Assembly: GCF_004102945.1 (NCBI RefSeq)
Contig: NZ_CP019384.1
Location: forward strand, 1,500,001 to 1,532,000
Length of the DNA: 32,000 nucleotides
Reading direction: 5' to 3'
DNA from: Candidatus Velamenicoccus archaeovorus
GTDB taxonomy: Bacteria; Omnitrophota; Gorgyraeia; Velamenicoccales; Velamenicoccaceae
Position 1 is the stretch's first letter. Every line of letters starts with the position of its first letter. Shown in pieces: positions 2,886 to 23,486 of the stretch. The translations under genes were made by a program, and so were the position numbers. Below the pieces are notes generated by a model. The model was not told where the DNA came from and ran no database searches. It saw nothing but the letters and a program-made list of their open reading frames with translations.

Positions 2886-3046
2886 CATTATCCCGACGCT
2901 TGCCTTCGGCAAGGTCGGGATTAATTCGGCCAAATCGGTTTATTTCTCATTAGTCCCTCGCCCCTTATCAGAATATTTGCTGGGGGCTCGGGATTAATTT
3001 GCGCAAATCATTTACGTCGCGCGTTGCGCTGCCGTAAATGATGCGC
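2886..3046. repeat. three consecutive hairpins 3' of nrdJ; the first two are paralogous units with a conserved base and tail
   Basis: Unit 1 is attatcccgacgcttgcc-ttc-ggcaaggtcgggattaat (2886-2922) and unit 2 is attagtccctcgcccc...gggggctcgggattaat (2949-2996). Each is followed by the tail attaattNNgcNcaaatc; the 12-mer tcgggattaatt is exact in both. The third hairpin is gcgcaaatcatttacg...cgtaaatgatgcgc (3001-3046), directly after the nrdJ stop codon. Confidence 0.6.
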
Positions 3047-3049
3047 TCA

Positions 3050-5353
3050 TTAGCATTTCGTATATCCGCAAGCCGAACACTTGACGCAGCCTTCTTCGTG
3101 CCTCACCACGCCGCCGCAATCGGGGCAGACGCCGACGATATTTCCCGTGATGTGCTTTTCAAGCTGTTCTTCGCTCTTGGAGACCTGACTGTAGAGCTCT
3201 TCGCTCATCTGGTCGATGGCGGCAGCGACCTTGGCTTCGGCCTTGGTCTCTATCTTGTCGTTGACCAGGCGGCGCTCGATGACGCGGGCGATGGCGTCCG
3301 CGCAGGAGAAGATGCGACAGCCCTTTTCCCACGATGGGGACGGGCAGCGGATGGAACGGAGCTGTTCGATGATGACCTTGACGTCAACGCTGGAACGCAG
3401 CGCCAAAGACACCAAGCGACCGATGGCTTCCAGCTGGGAGGCCGCGCATCCGCCTGCCTTACCCATCGACATAAAGACTTCGAACGGACGGCTGTTCTCG
3501 TCCGTATTGATCGTGACATACAGGTTGCCGCAGCCGGTCGAGACCTTGGTCGTCGTGCCCATGACGACCTCGGGCCTGGGCCTGGGGCCGATCTTGCCTT
3601 CGGCGACCTGTTTGTCTTTCTTTGTATCTTTTGTGCCGACGCTCAAGACCTGCTCGGAACGGCTCTTGTCGCGGTAGATGGTCAAACCCTTGCAGCCCAT
3701 CTCGTAGGCGAGCATGTAGGCCTTGCGCACGTCGTCGATCGACGCGTCTTCGTGGAAATTGATGGTCTTGGAGACCGCATTATCCGTGAATTTCTGGAAG
3801 ACGGCCTGCATCTTGATGTGCCATTCGGGCGTGATATCGTGGGATGTCACGAACGCGCGGCGGATATCCTCCGGAACTTCCTTCATCTCCTGGACAGAGC
3901 CTTTTTCGGCGATCTTTTCCATGAGCTTGCGCGTGTAAAGCCCCTTCTCCTCCATCACGTCCTTGAACGCGGGCTCGACCTCGATCATCCTGGCGTTATC
4001 TAGGACGTTGGCGCGCTGATAACAGAGCGCGAACATCGGCTCAATGCCGGAAGAACACGGCCCGGCGATGATGGAGATCGTGCCTGTGGGCGCGATGGTG
4101 GTGAGCGTCGCGTTGCGCAGGCGCAGGTTGCTGGCCTCAAAAATGCTGCCCTTATACGCCGGGAACGTGCCCCTGGCGCGCGCCAAGTCCAGAGACTCCT
4201 TGCGGGCCTCGGCCTGGATGAAGGACATGACCTTTTCCGCCAGGGCAATGGCCTCGTCGGAATCATACGGGATCATCATCTTGGCCAGGGCGCTCGACCA
4301 GCCCATGATGCCCAAGCCGATCTTGCGGGTCTGCTTGGTCATCTTGTCGATCTGGGAAAGGGGATACTTGTTGACGTCGATGACGTTGTCCAAGAAGTGG
4401 ACGGAAAGATGGATGATCTCTTTCAACCTGTCCCAGTCGAACTCAAACTTGCCGTCAGCCTTTTTGAGGAGCGCGTAAAGGTTGATGGAGCCGAGGTTAC
4501 AGCTCTCAAAAGGCAACAGCGGCTGTTCGCCGCAAGGATTGGTGGATTCTATCTTACCTAATAATGGGGTGGGATTGTTGTTGTTGATGCGGTCGATAAA
4601 GATGATGCCGGGTTCGCCGTTCTTGTGGGCCATTTTGACCATGAGCTCGAAGACCTCTTTGGCCTTGAGCCGGTGGACGGCCTTGTGCGTGTTGGGGTCG
4701 ATCAAGTCGTATTCTTCGTCTTTGGTGACCTTGCGCATGAAATCTTCCGTCACGGCGACGGAAATGTTGAAATTATTGATCTCCTTGTCGTTTTCCTTGC
4801 AGACGATGAAGTCCATGATATCCGGATGGTCCACGCGCAGGATGCCCATATTGGCGCCGCGCCTGGTGCCGCCCTGCTTGACCGCCTGGGTGGCGGCGTC
4901 AAAGACTTTCATGAAGGAGACCGGGCCGGAAGCGATGCCGCCCGTGGAACGCACGGTCGAAGAACGCGCCCGCAGGCGCGAAAAGGAAAATCCCGTGCCG
5001 CCGCCCGACTTGTGGATGAGCGCGGTGAACTTGATGGAATCGAAAATGCTGTCCATCGAATCTTCAATGGGCAGGACAAAACAGGCGGAGAGCTGGGAGA
5101 GGTCGCGGCCCGCGTTCATCAGGGTCGGGGAGTTCGGCATAAACTCCAGGTTCTCCATCATCGTGAAAAATTTGTGTTCCAGAGCGGCGATATCGTCCTC
5201 GGTCTTGCGATAGAGGCGGTCGGCGGCCGCAATCGCCTTGGCCACGCGGGTGAACATCTCCTGAGGGGTCTCAACCACCTTGCCGTTTTCGTCTTTTTTA
5301 AGGTAGCGTTTTTCGAGGACTTTGAGGGAGTTTTCGGAAAGCTTTAGCGCCAT
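3050..5353 (-). CDS. nrdJ: adenosylcobalamin-dependent (class II) ribonucleotide reductase
   Basis: 767-aa ORF. N-terminus LSENSLKVLEKRYLKKDENGKVVETPQEMFTRVA. Catalytic-core strings NPCGEQPL and TIAPTGT. C-terminal Cys cluster CPDCGG...CVKCSACGYTKC. AAAGGAGAGG lies 6 nt before the ATG. Confidence 0.92.
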   Translation of the reverse strand: MALKLSENSLKVLEKRYLKKDENGKVVETPQEMFTRVAKAIAAADRLYRKTEDDIAALEHKFFTMMENLEFMPNSPTLMNAGRDLSQLSACFVLPIEDSMDSIFDSIKFTALIHKSGGGTGFSFSRLRARSSTVRSTGGIASGPVSFMKVFDAATQAVKQGGTRRGANMGILRVDHPDIMDFIVCKENDKEINNFNISVAVTEDFMRKVTKDEEYDLIDPNTHKAVHRLKAKEVFELMVKMAHKNGEPGIIFIDRINNNNPTPLLGKIESTNPCGEQPLLPFESCNLGSINLYALLKKADGKFEFDWDRLKEIIHLSVHFLDNVIDVNKYPLSQIDKMTKQTRKIGLGIMGWSSALAKMMIPYDSDEAIALAEKVMSFIQAEARKESLDLARARGTFPAYKGSIFEASNLRLRNATLTTIAPTGTISIIAGPCSSGIEPMFALCYQRANVLDNARMIEVEPAFKDVMEEKGLYTRKLMEKIAEKGSVQEMKEVPEDIRRAFVTSHDITPEWHIKMQAVFQKFTDNAVSKTINFHEDASIDDVRKAYMLAYEMGCKGLTIYRDKSRSEQVLSVGTKDTKKDKQVAEGKIGPRPRPEVVMGTTTKVSTGCGNLYVTINTDENSRPFEVFMSMGKAGGCAASQLEAIGRLVSLALRSSVDVKVIIEQLRSIRCPSPSWEKGCRIFSCADAIARVIERRLVNDKIETKAEAKVAAAIDQMSEELYSQVSKSEEQLEKHITGNIVGVCPDCGGVVRHEEGCVKCSACGYTKC

Positions 5354-14560: not shown

Positions 14561-14771
14561 GAGCCCCACGGGCTCAGCCTGGCCTCAAGGCCAAGGGCAG
14601 GCCCGTGGTCCTTTTTGATTCGCCCGTGGGGCGACATCCCGCTCCGCCATGGTTTTGTCTGCAAGACAAAACCAATCCACGGGCCCAGCCTCGCCCGCCC
14701 AAGCGGGCAGGGAATTCTGGCAAACGGGATTAACCCGTTTACCCCGTTAGAGAACTCGTTCTTTAACGGGG
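14561..14771. repeat. cluster of at least six short palindromes/hairpins with recurrent ccacgggc/gcccgtgg and aacggg/cccgtt words
   Basis: Hairpins: gagccc-cac-gggctc (14561-75); ggcc-tcaa-ggcc (14581-92); ggttttgtct-gca-agacaaaacc (14651-73); gcccgc-ccaa-gcgggc (14693-708); aaacggg-attaa-cccgttt (14722-40); ccccgtta-g-agaac-tc-gttct-t-taacgggg (14742-71). Long-range pairs: 14566-73 with 14601-08, and 14622-29 with 14678-85. Confidence 0.6.
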
Positions 14772-14794
14772 TTTACCCACTAACCCGCAAACCG

Positions 14795-16123
14795 CTAATT
14801 CTCGTTGTTTTCAATCTGCTTGTCCTTACCTTCGCCTTTAAGCCTTTGTTGCGCCTTTTCCATCAGGCGTCTCGCCGTACCGGAGTAGATGGATCCGGTC
14901 GTGCTGCTTTCGGCCGCGATCAGAGACTCAAAGGTGGCGATCGCCTCCCCGTACTTCCTCTTGCCGTATTGATCAACACCCTTCAAAAAGAGCTCTTTAT
15001 TGTCTTTGCGCGCCTGGTCCAACTGCTTGGCCGATTCCTTCTTGAGCGCCTTTTCCACGCGGACATCCTGTTTATGGTCTATGGCGTTTTGCCGGCGCTG
15101 AGCGGCCTCCGCCTGCTTTCTGGCCCGCTTCTGCTGAGCGGCTTCCATCTTGGCCTGCCGGCGCTCTTCAGCAGTTTCTTTTCCGGAAACCCCCTGGTTC
15201 TTCTCCAGGGCCTTGCGCACCCTGGCATCTATCTTGGCCTGACGCCGTTCTTCAACGGCCGCTTCCTTGGCGGCGCGCCGCTCCTTAACAGCCGCTTCCT
15301 TGGCGGCGCGGCGTTCTTCGGCGGCCGCTTTCTTGGCGGCGAGACGCTCCTCTTTTTCTTTCTTCTTCTCCGCTATGGCCTCAAGTTTTTCCTGGCGCCG
15401 CCGCTCTTTCTCGGCCAGCTTCTCCTGGCGCAGACGCATCTTCCTGTCAATGGGCTTTTCTATCTCACCTTCGGGTTTGGCCCGCGGCGTCGCTTCCACC
15501 TCGTAAGCCGCCAAATCCTGCTGAACGACCGCCTCATGGTCCGTCTTGTCTACCGGCCGGCGAGCGGCCTCGCGGGCAGCCTTGCGTGCGGCCGCCTTCT
15601 CCTTCTTCTCGTTTGCCCTGTCGATCTTGGCCTGTCTCCTAGCCGCCTTCAGCTTTTCTTTGTCCTGGATCTTCTTCTCGCGCTTCAATTGCTGCGATAT
15701 CTTGATCTCACACTCTTCCCGATAATAAGACGCGTAGTCATCGATCGGCTTGATCTGAAGGATCTTGTTGCATACTTCGATCGCTTCCTGGTATTTATGC
15801 GCCGCGTAAAGCCGGCGGCTGTCCTGATAGAGCTGTTTGAGCTCGGCATTCTTGCTCGCCTTCGCCTCCACCTTCGTCTGGTTCTTCTGGATCAAATGAA
15901 CCTTCTCCAGATAGATCTTGGCCTCCTCGTGGCCGGGTTCCATGCTCAGCGTCTTTTCAAATTCTTCGGCGGCGCGGTCATAGAGGCCGCGTTTATAGTA
16001 TTTAACGCCGTTCTGGAAGTGGAGCTCGACGACAACCGGATCCGCCGCCTCCAGACGCATCGCCGAAAAAAGGAAAACCGCTAGCAATCCAACCAAGACC
16101 GTGAACCGAGAAAATGATTTCAT
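14795..16123 (-). CDS. secreted TPR protein with a long E/K/R/A-rich charged helical region
   Basis: AAGGAG lies 6 nt before the ATG. Signal peptide MKSFSRFTVLVGLLAVFLFSAMRLEAA. TPR-like segments at both ends. About 230 aa of low-complexity charged sequence in the middle (AAKEAAVKERRAAKEAAVEERR...). Confidence 0.8.
   Translation of the reverse strand: MKSFSRFTVLVGLLAVFLFSAMRLEAADPVVVELHFQNGVKYYKRGLYDRAAEEFEKTLSMEPGHEEAKIYLEKVHLIQKNQTKVEAKASKNAELKQLYQDSRRLYAAHKYQEAIEVCNKILQIKPIDDYASYYREECEIKISQQLKREKKIQDKEKLKAARRQAKIDRANEKKEKAAARKAAREAARRPVDKTDHEAVVQQDLAAYEVEATPRAKPEGEIEKPIDRKMRLRQEKLAEKERRRQEKLEAIAEKKKEKEERLAAKKAAAEERRAAKEAAVKERRAAKEAAVEERRQAKIDARVRKALEKNQGVSGKETAEERRQAKMEAAQQKRARKQAEAAQRRQNAIDHKQDVRVEKALKKESAKQLDQARKDNKELFLKGVDQYGKRKYGEAIATFESLIAAESSTTGSIYSGTARRLMEKAQQRLKGEGKDKQIENNEN
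15258..15356. repeat. three tandem 33-nt coding repeats inside the charged region
   Basis: Units start at 15258, 15291 and 15324 (gccgcttccttggcggcgcg...). They encode ERRAAKEAAV(K/E)-type 11-residue repeats on the minus strand. Confidence 0.7.
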
Positions 16124-16130
16124 TCCGAAC

Positions 16131-16480
16131 TCCTTAATTTTGCCTATAACAGGGTAAGCTTTCCTTACAAAATGAACTCCGCACTTACGCAGAAAATTTC
16201 CGCCGGCCCGCCTTGGCGGAAATTTTCAAGTGCCCAAGTGCGGAGTCAACGTTTATTTCCTTAATTTTGCCTATAACAGGGTAAACTTTCCTTACAAAAT
16301 TAGGCCCTCCGCTTATTCGGAATTGCGTAGGCCTACCCCCTTGTGGGGTTAACTCTGTGCCTGCGAAGGAAATTTCACGCCGGCTTGCCCTGGCGTGAAA
16401 TTTACGAGCGCCTAGGCGCAGAGTAACGTTATTTTCCTTCATTTCGCCTATATCGAGGTTTTCTTCTTTTACGGCAAAAT
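16131..16480. repeat. tandem intergenic modules: a conserved 43-nt block (x2, plus one degenerate copy) alternating with paralogous nested hairpins
   Basis: Blocks tccttaattttgcctataacagggtaaRctttccttacaaaat at 16131-16173 and 16258-16300 match 42/43. A degenerate copy lies at 16435-16480. Hairpin 1: outer stem 16176-86/16236-46, inner stem 16192-204/16215-27. Hairpin 2: outer stem 16352-62/16414-24, inner stem 16370-81/16392-403. Both hairpins are followed by aacgtt(t)att. Confidence 0.75.
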
Positions 16481-17668
16481 CGAGCGGCACCATTCGATCA
16501 GCCGCTCCGCCTTCTCGGCAAGAAAGATGGCTTCCGACCGCGTCAGGGGCCTGTCTTCATTTTCCATGAGATCTCTCATATTCAGGATCGCCCTCAACCG
16601 CAGGATGTTCTCTTCGGCATCCGTACGATTGACATGGTCCACCATCAGCCACACAATATTCTCATGTTCCGGATAAGCGCTTTTGATCCCGTAAAAATAA
16701 ATCAAGAGCGCGTCACAATAATACAAAGATGCCTGGATGGCATTCAATCCCGCAGAATTCCAGCGACTGGTCCGCAAGGCATCTTTCATATTCTCGTAAT
16801 AGGCAGCCGCTTTGTTCAAATAAATAGGGAATTCGATAAGCTCTGCCGGCACCCCGGGCTTGCCTGCAGAAACCTCTTCTTTCTTGCGCCGCCACTTCTC
16901 CGTCTCCGCATCGAGCTTCCTGGCTTTCTTGGCAAGCTTCGCCTCGGCGAGATACCCCTGCTTCTCCTCTTCCAGGATCGCCTCCTGCCGGCTCAACTGC
17001 CGCTCTTTTTTTCTGATCATCTCGTCGAGGTCCGCGCGACTCTGGGCCTTCTCCTCCAGGAATGTATCCATGTCCTCCTGGGCGGAGATATCTTCCTTCA
17101 TGTAGGCGACCTCCTTCTCCATCCCCATCACTTCTTCGGCGCGCTTCCTGGGTCCGTAGATAGAAGAATCCTTCTTGGCCTTGGGGCCCAGCGCCTGCTC
17201 GCAAAGCTCGGCATAATAAAGGGCGAATTTATCGCTTGGGTTCTGGTCCAGAATGGCCTTGAATGCCTCCAGGGCCCGGTCGTAATCGTGTTTTTCGTAA
17301 TACATCTTTCCCAGAAAATACAGATCGACGCCCTTGGCCTCGTAGGACGAATTATCCTTGGGCAAAAGCAGGTCTTCACGGTACTGCTCCAGATGGGTCA
17401 TGGAATCCGTGATGTATCTCTGCGTGTTCTTATAATAAGGGTCTATGGAAGATACCGTCCTGAATTCATTCAGGGCGTCTTCAAAGCGGCCGGCCTCGTA
17501 ATTCACGACGCCGCGGAAGTAATGCACAGCCAACTCCCGGCGGACATCCGCATCATCCGGCTTTGCCGCCCGAACTATGCCTGAAAACGCCAGAAAGAGT
17601 CCGGTCATCAGCAAGACGGCTATTTTGAAGGTGTCTCTCAACTCCGCCTCCTTCAATGAGCGTACCAT
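16469..17668 (-). CDS. secreted/membrane-anchored TPR and coiled-coil protein, paralogous in architecture to 14795..16123
   Basis: ATG at 17668 has no SD and lies in a hairpin arm. TTG at 17641 is preceded by AAGGAGG (5 nt spacing) and gives a canonical signal peptide MRDTFKIAVLLMTGLFLAFSGIVRAA, so 17641 is probably the true start. N-terminal TPR repeats, a charged coiled coil, and a helical C-terminal domain. Confidence 0.8.
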   Translation of the reverse strand: MVRSLKEAELRDTFKIAVLLMTGLFLAFSGIVRAAKPDDADVRRELAVHYFRGVVNYEAGRFEDALNEFRTVSSIDPYYKNTQRYITDSMTHLEQYREDLLLPKDNSSYEAKGVDLYFLGKMYYEKHDYDRALEAFKAILDQNPSDKFALYYAELCEQALGPKAKKDSSIYGPRKRAEEVMGMEKEVAYMKEDISAQEDMDTFLEEKAQSRADLDEMIRKKERQLSRQEAILEEEKQGYLAEAKLAKKARKLDAETEKWRRKKEEVSAGKPGVPAELIEFPIYLNKAAAYYENMKDALRTSRWNSAGLNAIQASLYYCDALLIYFYGIKSAYPEHENIVWLMVDHVNRTDAEENILRLRAILNMRDLMENEDRPLTRSEAIFLAEKAERLIEWCRSILP

Positions 17669-17700
17669 TTACGGAACCATGTGAACGTAAATGGTATGCG

Positions 17701-17822: not shown

Positions 17823-17865
17823 GCAGATAACTTAGCAGCGCTCCGCTCGCTAACCCAGAAAGGGT

Positions 17866-17898
17866 AGGCCTTCCTTATACCATATAAAGGAAGGGCCT
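17866..17898 (-). terminator. possible intrinsic terminator after lnt
   Basis: aggccttcctt-ataccatata-aaggaagggcct lies 12 nt after the lnt stop. On the minus strand it is followed by cccuuucuggguu, which is only moderately U-rich. Confidence 0.4.
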
Positions 17899-17909
17899 AA
17901 GTCATGCCG

Positions 17910-23419: not shown

Positions 23420-23486
23420 CTGTCAAACTCACCTCTGTCCTTACATTTAGTTATAAACGAAGACTTATTTTAACGCATAGCCCGCT

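Follow-up and report, generated by a model that had tools for sequence, protein, structure and literature searches.

A tandem array of small palindromic repeats between two TPR genes of Candidatus Velamenicoccus archaeovorus, probably drawn from a dispersed family of mobile elements

The 345 nt spacer between two minus-strand TPR genes of Candidatus Velamenicoccus archaeovorus (16124-16468) is most probably a tandem array of small, palindromic, mobile DNA repeats that belong to a dispersed family specific to the lineage and would be added at TAA junctions. The family is modular as well as dispersed, with modules nested one inside another, and is characterised by exact insertion polymorphisms, a TAA rule at its junctions, copies abutting ribosome-binding sites and the replacement of an entire spacer between strains. 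An initial annotation of the same DNA had read the hairpins of this spacer as candidate small RNA genes. All positions are those of the window, the whole stretch of 32,000 nt that was analysed (contig NZ_CP019384.1 of assembly GCF_004102945.1, positions 1,500,001 to 1,532,000, forward strand); sequences compared with it are given as L001, L002 and so on.

Results

Organisation of the intergenic array

The gene downstream of the spacer, BU251_07095, encodes a TPR protein of 442 aa and the ORF upstream one of 399 aa, the true start of which probably lies around 27 nt further downstream at a TTG codon, judging from the 390 aa protein of relatives. The two products are weak paralogues (29% identity over 123 aa, E = 6e-12). 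Both lnt and secA lie upstream of the pair, and the neighbouring genes (secA, lnt and that for adenosine kinase) are core genes. When read in the sense of the genes, the spacer resolves into six module copies of three types (H, P and B), arranged in the order B3-H2-P-B2-H2-B1-SD-ATG. The features of the locus, including a further P module outside the spacer, are as follows.

17850-17900, plus strand: second P module, lying between lnt and the upstream TPR gene in antisense to the genes, with CTAA at each side; the site is empty in L003
16469-17668, minus strand: upstream gene, TPR ORF of 399 aa, with its TAA stop at 16469-16471
16469-16480, minus strand: end of the upstream TPR gene (final codons and TAA stop), ATTTTGCCGTAA
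16435-16468, minus strand: B3, a degenerate B module (loop and 3' arm), ...CCTCGATATAGGCGAAATGAAGGA; resembles the B variants of L010, L012 and L025
16425-16434, minus strand: H leader AAATAACGTT, with the TAA junction before hairpin 2
16352-16424, minus strand: hp2, an H module of subtype H2; basal stem ACTCTG/CAGAGT, mid stem AAATTT/AAATTT
16300-16351, minus strand: TAA and P module, CCCCACAAGGGGGTAGGCC...GGGCCTAA; two small hairpins, GTAG before the second, CTAA end
16258-16299, minus strand: B2, B module TTTTGTAAGGAAAGTTTACCCTGTTATAGGCAAAATTAAGGA, then A and the next H leader
16247-16257, minus strand: H leader AATAAACGTTG, with the TAA junction before hairpin 1
16176-16246, minus strand: hp1, an H module of subtype H2; basal stem ACTCCGCAC/GTGCGGAGT
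16131-16175, minus strand: TCA and B1, the terminal B module; its 3' end ATTAAGGA and a following G form the ribosome-binding site
16121-16135, minus strand: AAGGAG ribosome-binding site (16130-16135), TTCGGA spacer and ATG (16121-16123) of BU251_07095
14795-16123, minus strand: BU251_07095, 442 aa TPR gene of Candidatus Velamenicoccus archaeovorus

A repeat finder recovered the 43 nt block of the initial annotation twice, at 16131-16173 and 16258-16300 (42/43 identical, 127 nt apart), together with the degenerate third copy (65% identical, 16435-16477) that overlaps the TAA stop of the upstream gene; the window contains no further match, and shuffled sequences gave an expectation of 0 matches. 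The block is indeed a repeated unit ending in a ribosome-binding site. Within the third copy, ATTTTGCC, at the end of the upstream gene, is able to pair with GGCGAAAT, in the position of the 5' arm of a B-type palindrome.

Both nested hairpins (16176-16246 and 16352-16424) are, as had been noticed, paralogous structures in which pairing is kept, with 10 nt loops and perfect inner stems of 13 and 12 bp that differ, on direct reading, by a matched A/T insertion. The outer stems are distinguished by the three double compensatory changes described, but the wobble reported alongside these is a G.U pair on the plus strand only, antisense to the genes, and an A.C mismatch on the gene-sense strand. 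The observation that each hairpin is followed by the same motif holds for hairpin 1, which directly precedes TTCATTTTGT, but not for hairpin 2, which is followed by TAA and a separate 49 nt element (16300-16348) before ATTTTGT; the extra ~50 nt of the second unit is the P module. The spacer as a whole folds far better than shuffled sequences on both strands (z = -5.3 on the minus strand, -7.3 on the plus strand).

A modular family of nested palindromes

Comparison across loci resolved five module types. Module H, a long hairpin of variable middle, carries the leader AAYAAACGTT(G) and is closed at its base by the stem ACTCCTCG.../...CTCGGAGT, after which comes TAA; subtype H1 is marked by ATATCTGTCTGCANCCAG...GGGCATCCAGATAT and subtype H2 by CTTGTAAATTT...AAATTTAC. 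The basal stem of H could be counted as inverted repeats. P, a double hairpin of 47-49 nt, has the form CCCCACAAGGGGGTAGGCCTTCGC...GCGAAGGGCCTAA. S (TTAATCCCGCCAGAGGCGGGATTAAGGA) and B are alternative small palindromes with a TTAAGGA end, B being the 43 nt block, in which the palindrome TTAATTTTG...CAAAATTAA encloses a 20-25 nt loop with a mini-hairpin. K, a pair of small hairpins with the conserved loops GAAAG and TCCGAT, is found nested within the apex of H, the loop of P, or B.

These modules are assembled according to the grammar (H [P] (S or B)), repeated, then GGAG and a start codon: where ATTAAGGA is followed by G a gene comes next, and where it is followed by A the next H leader begins. 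Within every array examined, all modules share one orientation. As regards coding potential, a small ORF following the internal AAGGA was considered and rejected, the 7-codon TTG frame being found only in GTTGACTCC variants and not in CGTTACTCC variants.

The hairpins hp1 and hp2 align with H2 hairpins elsewhere, having in common the leader AAYAAACGTT, basal ACTCC/GGAGT pairing, an AAATTT mid stem and a 3' TAA; an alignment of eight H2 sequences retains the basal and AAATTT stems and exhibits compensatory changes. While the two are 76% identical to one another, hp1 is 78-82% identical to copies at other loci, and the identity of the pair to seven other H copies ranges from 66 to 82%. As copies elsewhere resemble hp1 no less than hp2 does, the two hairpins are best regarded as separate members of the family and not as a recent local duplicate. 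The contrast between B1 and B2 (98% identical) and the hairpins (76%) needs either the insertion of an H and B composite or local gene conversion, homogenising the blocks.

Dispersal and position relative to genes

A scan of metagenomes with the H-S junction identified 20 loci. At all 20, the H-S unit is in the sense orientation and directly 5' of an ORF, with TTAAGGAG located 5-10 nt before the start codon. In each of ten cases checked, the ORF proved to be a real housekeeping gene: the genes following H-S units include groEL, ilvC, aroC and those for L25, glutamate dehydrogenase (gdh), the gamma and beta subunits of PFOR, ACP, a phosphorylase and a PLP enzyme. Units are also present inside operons, for instance between groES and groEL or among PFOR subunits. 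Greedy ORF calling was too noisy in such G+C-rich DNA, and orientation was consequently assessed by the combination of a ribosome-binding site and an ORF, with an antisense control; by this measure, a sense gene start is present within 520 nt for 36 of 42 distinct H copies, compared with 4/42 in the control.

Composite arrangements recur too. On another contig (L020, 3490-3690), a B-H2-B composite precedes a gene for the TPP-binding beta subunit of PFOR and matches the B2-hp1-B1 segment of the window with 82% mean column identity over ~200 nt. A second H1-S unit, on the opposite strand, separates the adenosine kinase and lipid A acyltransferase genes in L006 and L016; the same site lacks it in the window and L010. 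Antisense copies therefore exist, exemplified by the H-S unit of L016, an H2-like hairpin upstream of prfA and the P module at 17854-17900 of the window; in L016, the sole antisense H-S unit found, the ribosome-binding site has decayed to TTAAAGC.

Scanning a genome collection with the H1 core pattern added four loci, none of them from the genome of the window, the pattern being too specific to serve as a census. Viral contigs scanned for the H-S junction and for P gave no matches. No description of such repeat elements was found in the searchable part of the literature on Velamenicoccus and Omnitrophota.

Variation among strains and relatives

L001 (GCA_041890195.1) and L002 encode a protein identical to BU251_07095, and their flanks are 99.7-100% identical to the window, yet 16146-16468 is replaced in both by a different spacer of 170 nt, containing one longer, different hairpin and no 43 nt block. 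This homologous spacer of the same species thus lacks both hairpins and both blocks, an outcome that the initial annotation had itself named as counting against its proposal. The replacement runs from the stop codon of the upstream gene to the ribosome-binding site of the gene downstream. Its left breakpoint corresponds to the last codons and stop of the upstream gene (16469-16480); the variable region begins exactly at the stop codon because these last codons (ATTTTGCC) supply the 5' arm of the third block.

At orthologous loci with 94%, 75% and 60% protein identity, the spacers measure 253, 328 and 617 nt, respectively, and are mosaics of the same modules in other orders and numbers. Stretches of 34 nt are identical between organisms in which the flanking proteins are only 60% identical.

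The family also occupies several unrelated loci within the species. Besides the P module at 17854-17900, the region upstream of prfA is 32 nt long in the window and 243 nt in L001, where it contains the antisense H2-like hairpin; a P-B array adjoins the start codon of nrdR (L037), ~4 kb past the right end of the window, the B module there lying next to the ATG without a canonical ribosome-binding site; and contig L039 has a further array at its end. Arrays are also where several contigs break off, as would be expected of dispersed repeats.

Insertion polymorphisms and TAA junctions

Two exact presence/absence polymorphisms of 47 nt indicate that P is mobile. The P module at 17854-17900 is missing from L003, a relative with 94% identity, in which the empty site has a single TTAG (CTAA when read on the other strand) where 17850-17900 has one on both sides of the insert. 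At another locus, L027 and L028 are otherwise identical over 150 nt and differ by the same 47 nt P, inserted inside an H stem at CTAA. Such clean insertion polymorphisms were found for P only, and not for H or B.

The regular expression for P returned 23 matches, 4 of which were judged to be artefacts. P follows YTAA in 19/23 (TTAA in 11, CTAA in 8), and its right end is CTAA in 19/23; TTAA on the left flank in 11/23 and CTAA at the right end in 19/23 do not look like a simple target site duplication. H copies also follow the junction rule, 29/40 being preceded by TAA(A)[C/G]N1-5, a pattern present in 2.5% of random 12-mers. Direct reading of P revealed no terminal inverted repeats, although hairpins are positioned near both ends; GTAG is conserved in 11 of 12 aligned copies, and its TAG is predicted to be paired with the 3' CTA.

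The absence of terminal inverted repeats from P, the hairpins near both ends, the GTAG and the constancy of the CTAA end whatever precedes the module all favour mobilization by an HUH/Y1 enzyme. Our best guess, from these sequence features, would be a transposase of the REP-RAYT or IS200/IS605 type, which recognises hairpins in single-stranded DNA. A tblastn search of 252 kb for RAYT and IS608 TnpA returned no match, which is uninformative given the approximate query sequences and the small amount of sequence.

Pairing, promoters and terminators

The frequency of G.U pairs is ~3% on each strand (55/1601 sense, 47/1579 antisense), and the antisense fold is the more stable in 36/40 H copies, by a mean of 3.6 kcal/mol. 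Stems so nearly purely Watson-Crick are a signature of DNA inverted repeats, with no strand of function. A search of the window against Rfam 15 gave no match at the gathering score, the best sub-threshold hit being uup RNA (19.4 bits against a cut-off of 36.8, E = 0.47), and four related loci yielded nothing but tRNAs.

The promoter-like TTGTAA-16-TATAGG noted in the block is present in B1 and B2, but a sigma-70 scan, for which the -10 hexamer must have A in second and T in sixth place and lie 16-18 nt from the -35, did not call the 43 nt block, as TATAGG has no T at position 6. Among B copies the spacing between TTGTAA and TATAGG, counted by hand from their sequences, varies from 13 to 16 nt, and the hexamers are the arms and loop of the B palindrome. 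Scanning for intrinsic terminators, defined by a G+C-rich stem with a U-run right after it, turned up only a weak alternative stem of 7 bp (minus strand, 16177-16194); next to the main stems come TGCG or CCTT, and no U-tract adjoins them.

Transcription of the downstream gene probably includes the array, which may then influence the mRNA, and a cis-regulatory role as part of the mRNA leader is conceivable. The arrangement at nrdR is a lead towards a promoter role for B.

Discussion

A mechanism of growth at TAA junctions

In the mechanism we propose, each module would be an inverted repeat with a (T/C)TAA end, lying directly after a TAA, and new modules would join at any TAA available: a stop codon, the terminal TAA of a resident module or the TAA of TAAGGAG. 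In its extended form the canonical ribosome-binding site reads TAAGGAGG, complementary to the 3' end of 16S rRNA, and a module inserted after TAA and itself ending in TAA would regenerate it. Since terminal S and B modules end in TTAA, TAAGGAG would be restored before the gene, making insertions tolerable and leading to the sense orientation and start-proximal position of the repeats. Those tolerated would then accumulate as direct arrays between one stop codon and the next start. Tolerance of insertions at the stop TAA, at module ends and at the ribosome-binding site would explain why the array of the window fills exactly the interval bounded by the TAA at 16469-16471 and the TAAGGAG at 16130-16136; the same insertion logic could account for both the orientation bias and the wholesale differences between strains. 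The compensatory changes that separate hp1 from hp2 would be those of two diverged members of a palindromic family, and are no evidence of local RNA co-evolution.

Alternative explanations

The near-invariant sense orientation and exact abutment on ribosome-binding sites could result from selection for a function at the RNA level instead of from insertion logic. The repeats would then be host-functional RNA leader or intercistronic cassettes tuning housekeeping genes, with H acting as a processing site for a double-strand-specific RNase or as a 3' stabiliser of the upstream cistron, and S or B as a protective 5' hairpin before a standard ribosome-binding site. This explanation, which is compatible with a mobile origin, is possible but unlikely to be the correct account of the array. 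It draws support from the sense orientation of 20/20 H-S units, each immediately ahead of a start codon with TTAAGGAG at a distance of 5-10 nt, from units within operons (groES-groEL, PFOR subunits), from the decay to TTAAAGC in the antisense unit of L016, and from the 34 nt identities between organisms whose flanking proteins are 60% identical. However, pairing exhibits no strand asymmetry and the antisense fold is the more stable on average, strains of one species differ wholesale in their modules at the same gene, and antisense copies exist. A combination of the two, in which mobile 'leader cassettes' are used by the host to place a long hairpin (for processing or insulation), a small 5' hairpin and a canonical ribosome-binding site before housekeeping genes, perhaps with B as a promoter, is more doubtful still.

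The proposal of the initial annotation, that a pair of genes for short hairpin RNAs occupies the spacer, each under a duplicate of the 442 aa gene's promoter and closing in a terminator-like hairpin, now seems improbable. TTGTAA-16-TATAGG does occur in both B1 and B2, a weak terminator-like stem and TTCATTTTGT follow hp1, and B adjoins the nrdR start without a canonical ribosome-binding site, as would fit the promoter of a leaderless mRNA. Yet the second hexamer lacks T at position 6, there is no sigma-70 call, the hexamers vary in spacing and coincide with palindrome arms and loop, and the main hairpins have neither an adjacent U-tract nor a match in Rfam. The dispersal of the hairpins over many loci and organisms, the absence of hairpins and blocks from a strain of the same species and the want of strand asymmetry leave the proposal unsupported, while the alternative that the annotation kept in reserve, modules of a mobile element, comes close to what is observed. 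Purely local tandem duplication of the 5' region of the gene, involving neither mobility nor a repeat family, would fit the 127 nt period, the 42/43 identity of B1 and B2 and the duplication history suggested by TPR paralogues on both sides; it is rendered very improbable by the presence of the same modules, and of the B-H2-B composite, at unrelated genes and in other organisms, by hairpins only 76% identical and no closer to each other than to copies elsewhere, and by the P module interrupting one unit. Least credible of all are integron-like attC sites flanking very short cassettes: conserved hairpin ends around a variable interior, AAC/GTT triplets near the hairpin feet and the recurrence of GA|GTT at junctions are reminiscent of attC, but the ends AAYAAAC-GTT(G)ACTCC ... 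GGAGTTAA misfit RYYYAAC / GTTRRRY and the putative R boxes are unpaired in register, there is no integrase or cassette ORF among what are core neighbouring genes, and the elements reside in the 5' leaders of many unrelated housekeeping genes.

Implications

Attributing the array most probably to mobile palindromic repeats removes a false lead, in that compensatory changes in these tandem hairpins do not mark small RNA genes, and gives Omnitrophota, to our knowledge a phylum with almost no cultured members, a family of repeats that appears not to have been described before. The family explains intergenic assembly breaks and wholesale spacer differences between near-identical strains, and its modules are ready markers for strain typing. 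Its logic would be unusual, as modules that end in TAA and insert after TAA would be able to colonise TAAGGAG without destroying it. Should the arrays affect mRNA processing or translation, they would provide a predatory ultramicrobacterium with a level of expression control that varies from strain to strain; if the host does use them as leader cassettes, translation initiation regions would be standardised and re-tuned by transposition, a natural counterpart of synthetic 5' UTR insulators.

Comparison with known repeat families

REPs and REPINs are mobilised by RAYT Y1 transposases. REP sequences are 20-40 bp palindromes with an unpaired GTAG or CGTC tag at one end (PMC3733652), and REPs and BIMEs have been described as extragenic palindromes that form mosaic clusters and lie mainly downstream of coding regions (PMC3733652, PMC3116915). 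The Velamenicoccus repeats resemble REP, BIME and REPIN sequences in being short, dispersed, extragenic imperfect palindromes that form mosaics of several motif types and vary between strains. A GTAG immediately precedes the main hairpin of P; the long hairpin H, conserved at its ends and variable in between, is akin to a REPIN; and the arrays are found between unidirectional genes, with which they are probably co-transcribed. They differ in that the arrays are direct and in the gene sense, whereas REP dimers and BIMEs alternate; in adjoining the ribosome-binding site of the next gene, whereas REPs lie mainly downstream of coding regions; in the predicted pairing of the TAG of P, the REP tag being unpaired; in the lack of a GTAG or CGTC tag from H, S and B; and in the nesting of modules in each other's loops.

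BOX elements of Streptococcus pneumoniae and MIRUs of Mycobacterium are modular intergenic repeats with stable hairpins, located near gene starts or inside operons; MIRUs run in the direction of the flanking genes, the stop and start signals of which they overlap. The Velamenicoccus arrays are similar to BOX in comprising a few types of unit in variable number, with stable hairpins, near gene starts or within operons, and to MIRUs in their orientation with the flanking genes and position at stop and start signals. There is, however, no sequence similarity to either; the modules are individually palindromic and nested and bear a full ribosome-binding site at their 3' end, and they contain no small coupled ORFs, the 7-codon TTG frame being confined to some variants.

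Correia elements, in Neisseria, are co-transcribed and able to supply promoters. With these and RUP, as examples of MITEs, the Velamenicoccus modules share a length of 50-180 nt, a hairpin-forming and non-coding nature and a location next to genes, as well as presence/absence polymorphisms with a short A/T-rich junction repeat (CTAA). MITEs of the DDE type, among them Correia, RUP and derivatives of IS5 or IS630, are marked by terminal inverted repeats and a true target site duplication. P is also like derivatives of IS200/IS605 in lacking terminal inverted repeats, having hairpins near both ends, lying 3' of a fixed short motif and possessing its own terminal tetranucleotide. No parent insertion sequence or transposase was found for the modules in the 252 kb searched, in which respect they differ from MITEs and IS200/IS605 derivatives alike, and neither the strictness of the sense orientation nor the way in which the ribosome-binding site is regenerated has a counterpart in those elements. 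The family therefore appears to be an undescribed, directional variant of REP/BIME-, BOX- and MITE-type repeats, one that abuts the ribosome-binding site of the gene it precedes.

Module copies and allele differences between relatives

The small palindromic repeats of the module family occur beyond the tandem array that separates the two TPR genes, and comparison with relatives and with other contigs of the same species reveals the following copies:

17850-17900, + strand: second copy of the P module in the window, in the gap that separates lnt from the upstream TPR gene
L037 14881-14984: P(+K)-B array adjoining the nrdR start codon (..TATAGGCAAAATTAATGAAATGTCC..)
L039 20577-20837: array of H2-like, S-like and H1 modules with nested inserts including K, from the same species and reaching the contig end

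The second P copy, which is antisense to both the upstream TPR gene and lnt, is an exact 47 nt insertion relative to the 94% identical relative L003, and is flanked on each side by TTAG/CTAA. The intergenic region upstream of prfA is replaced by a different one between strains that are 99.7% identical: it spans 32 nt in the window (23421-23452) and 243 nt in the same-species strain L001 (2636-2878), and within the 243 nt version lies an antisense H2-like hairpin. This replacement is accompanied by additional synonymous differences in the first codons.

The nrdR array lies in a same-species contig, approximately 4 kb past the right end of the window, and both contigs terminate within it. The nrdR start has no canonical ribosome-binding site at this array, and the B module may therefore serve as the promoter of a leaderless mRNA. 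Many metagenomic and MAG contigs (L004, L005, L011, L012, L014, L015, L037, L038 and L039) start or stop within arrays, which makes the family a systematic source of assembly breaks in Velamenicoccus-like genomes.

Other features of the window

A further type of hairpin, AATTYGCGCAWAYCATTTACG..loop..CGTAAATGRTRCGCTCATT, is present twice in the window:

2997-3052, + strand: immediately 3' of the ribonucleotide reductase gene
17660-17699, - strand: immediately 5' of the upstream TPR gene's GAAGGAGG site

The latter is also found in L003, with an apex around 40 nt bigger. At 17641-17668 (- strand), the ATG of the 399 aa TPR ORF falls within this hairpin and the ORF's orthologues are called as 390 aa proteins with a TTG start after GAAGGAGG; hence the true start is probably around 27 nt downstream.

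The 3' region of the 442 aa gene (14570-14795) is rich in hairpins, such as CCCCGTTA...TAACGGGG. This region is also conserved in L001, and it had no match in the module library.

At the left end, positions 1-2800 have a G+C content of 34-40%, against about 55%. Three ORFs lie there on the minus strand, and one of them encodes a CAP12/Pycsar TIR effector domain. The match of same-species contig L039 to the window begins only at 2801, and the low-G+C stretch may be a strain-specific defence islet.
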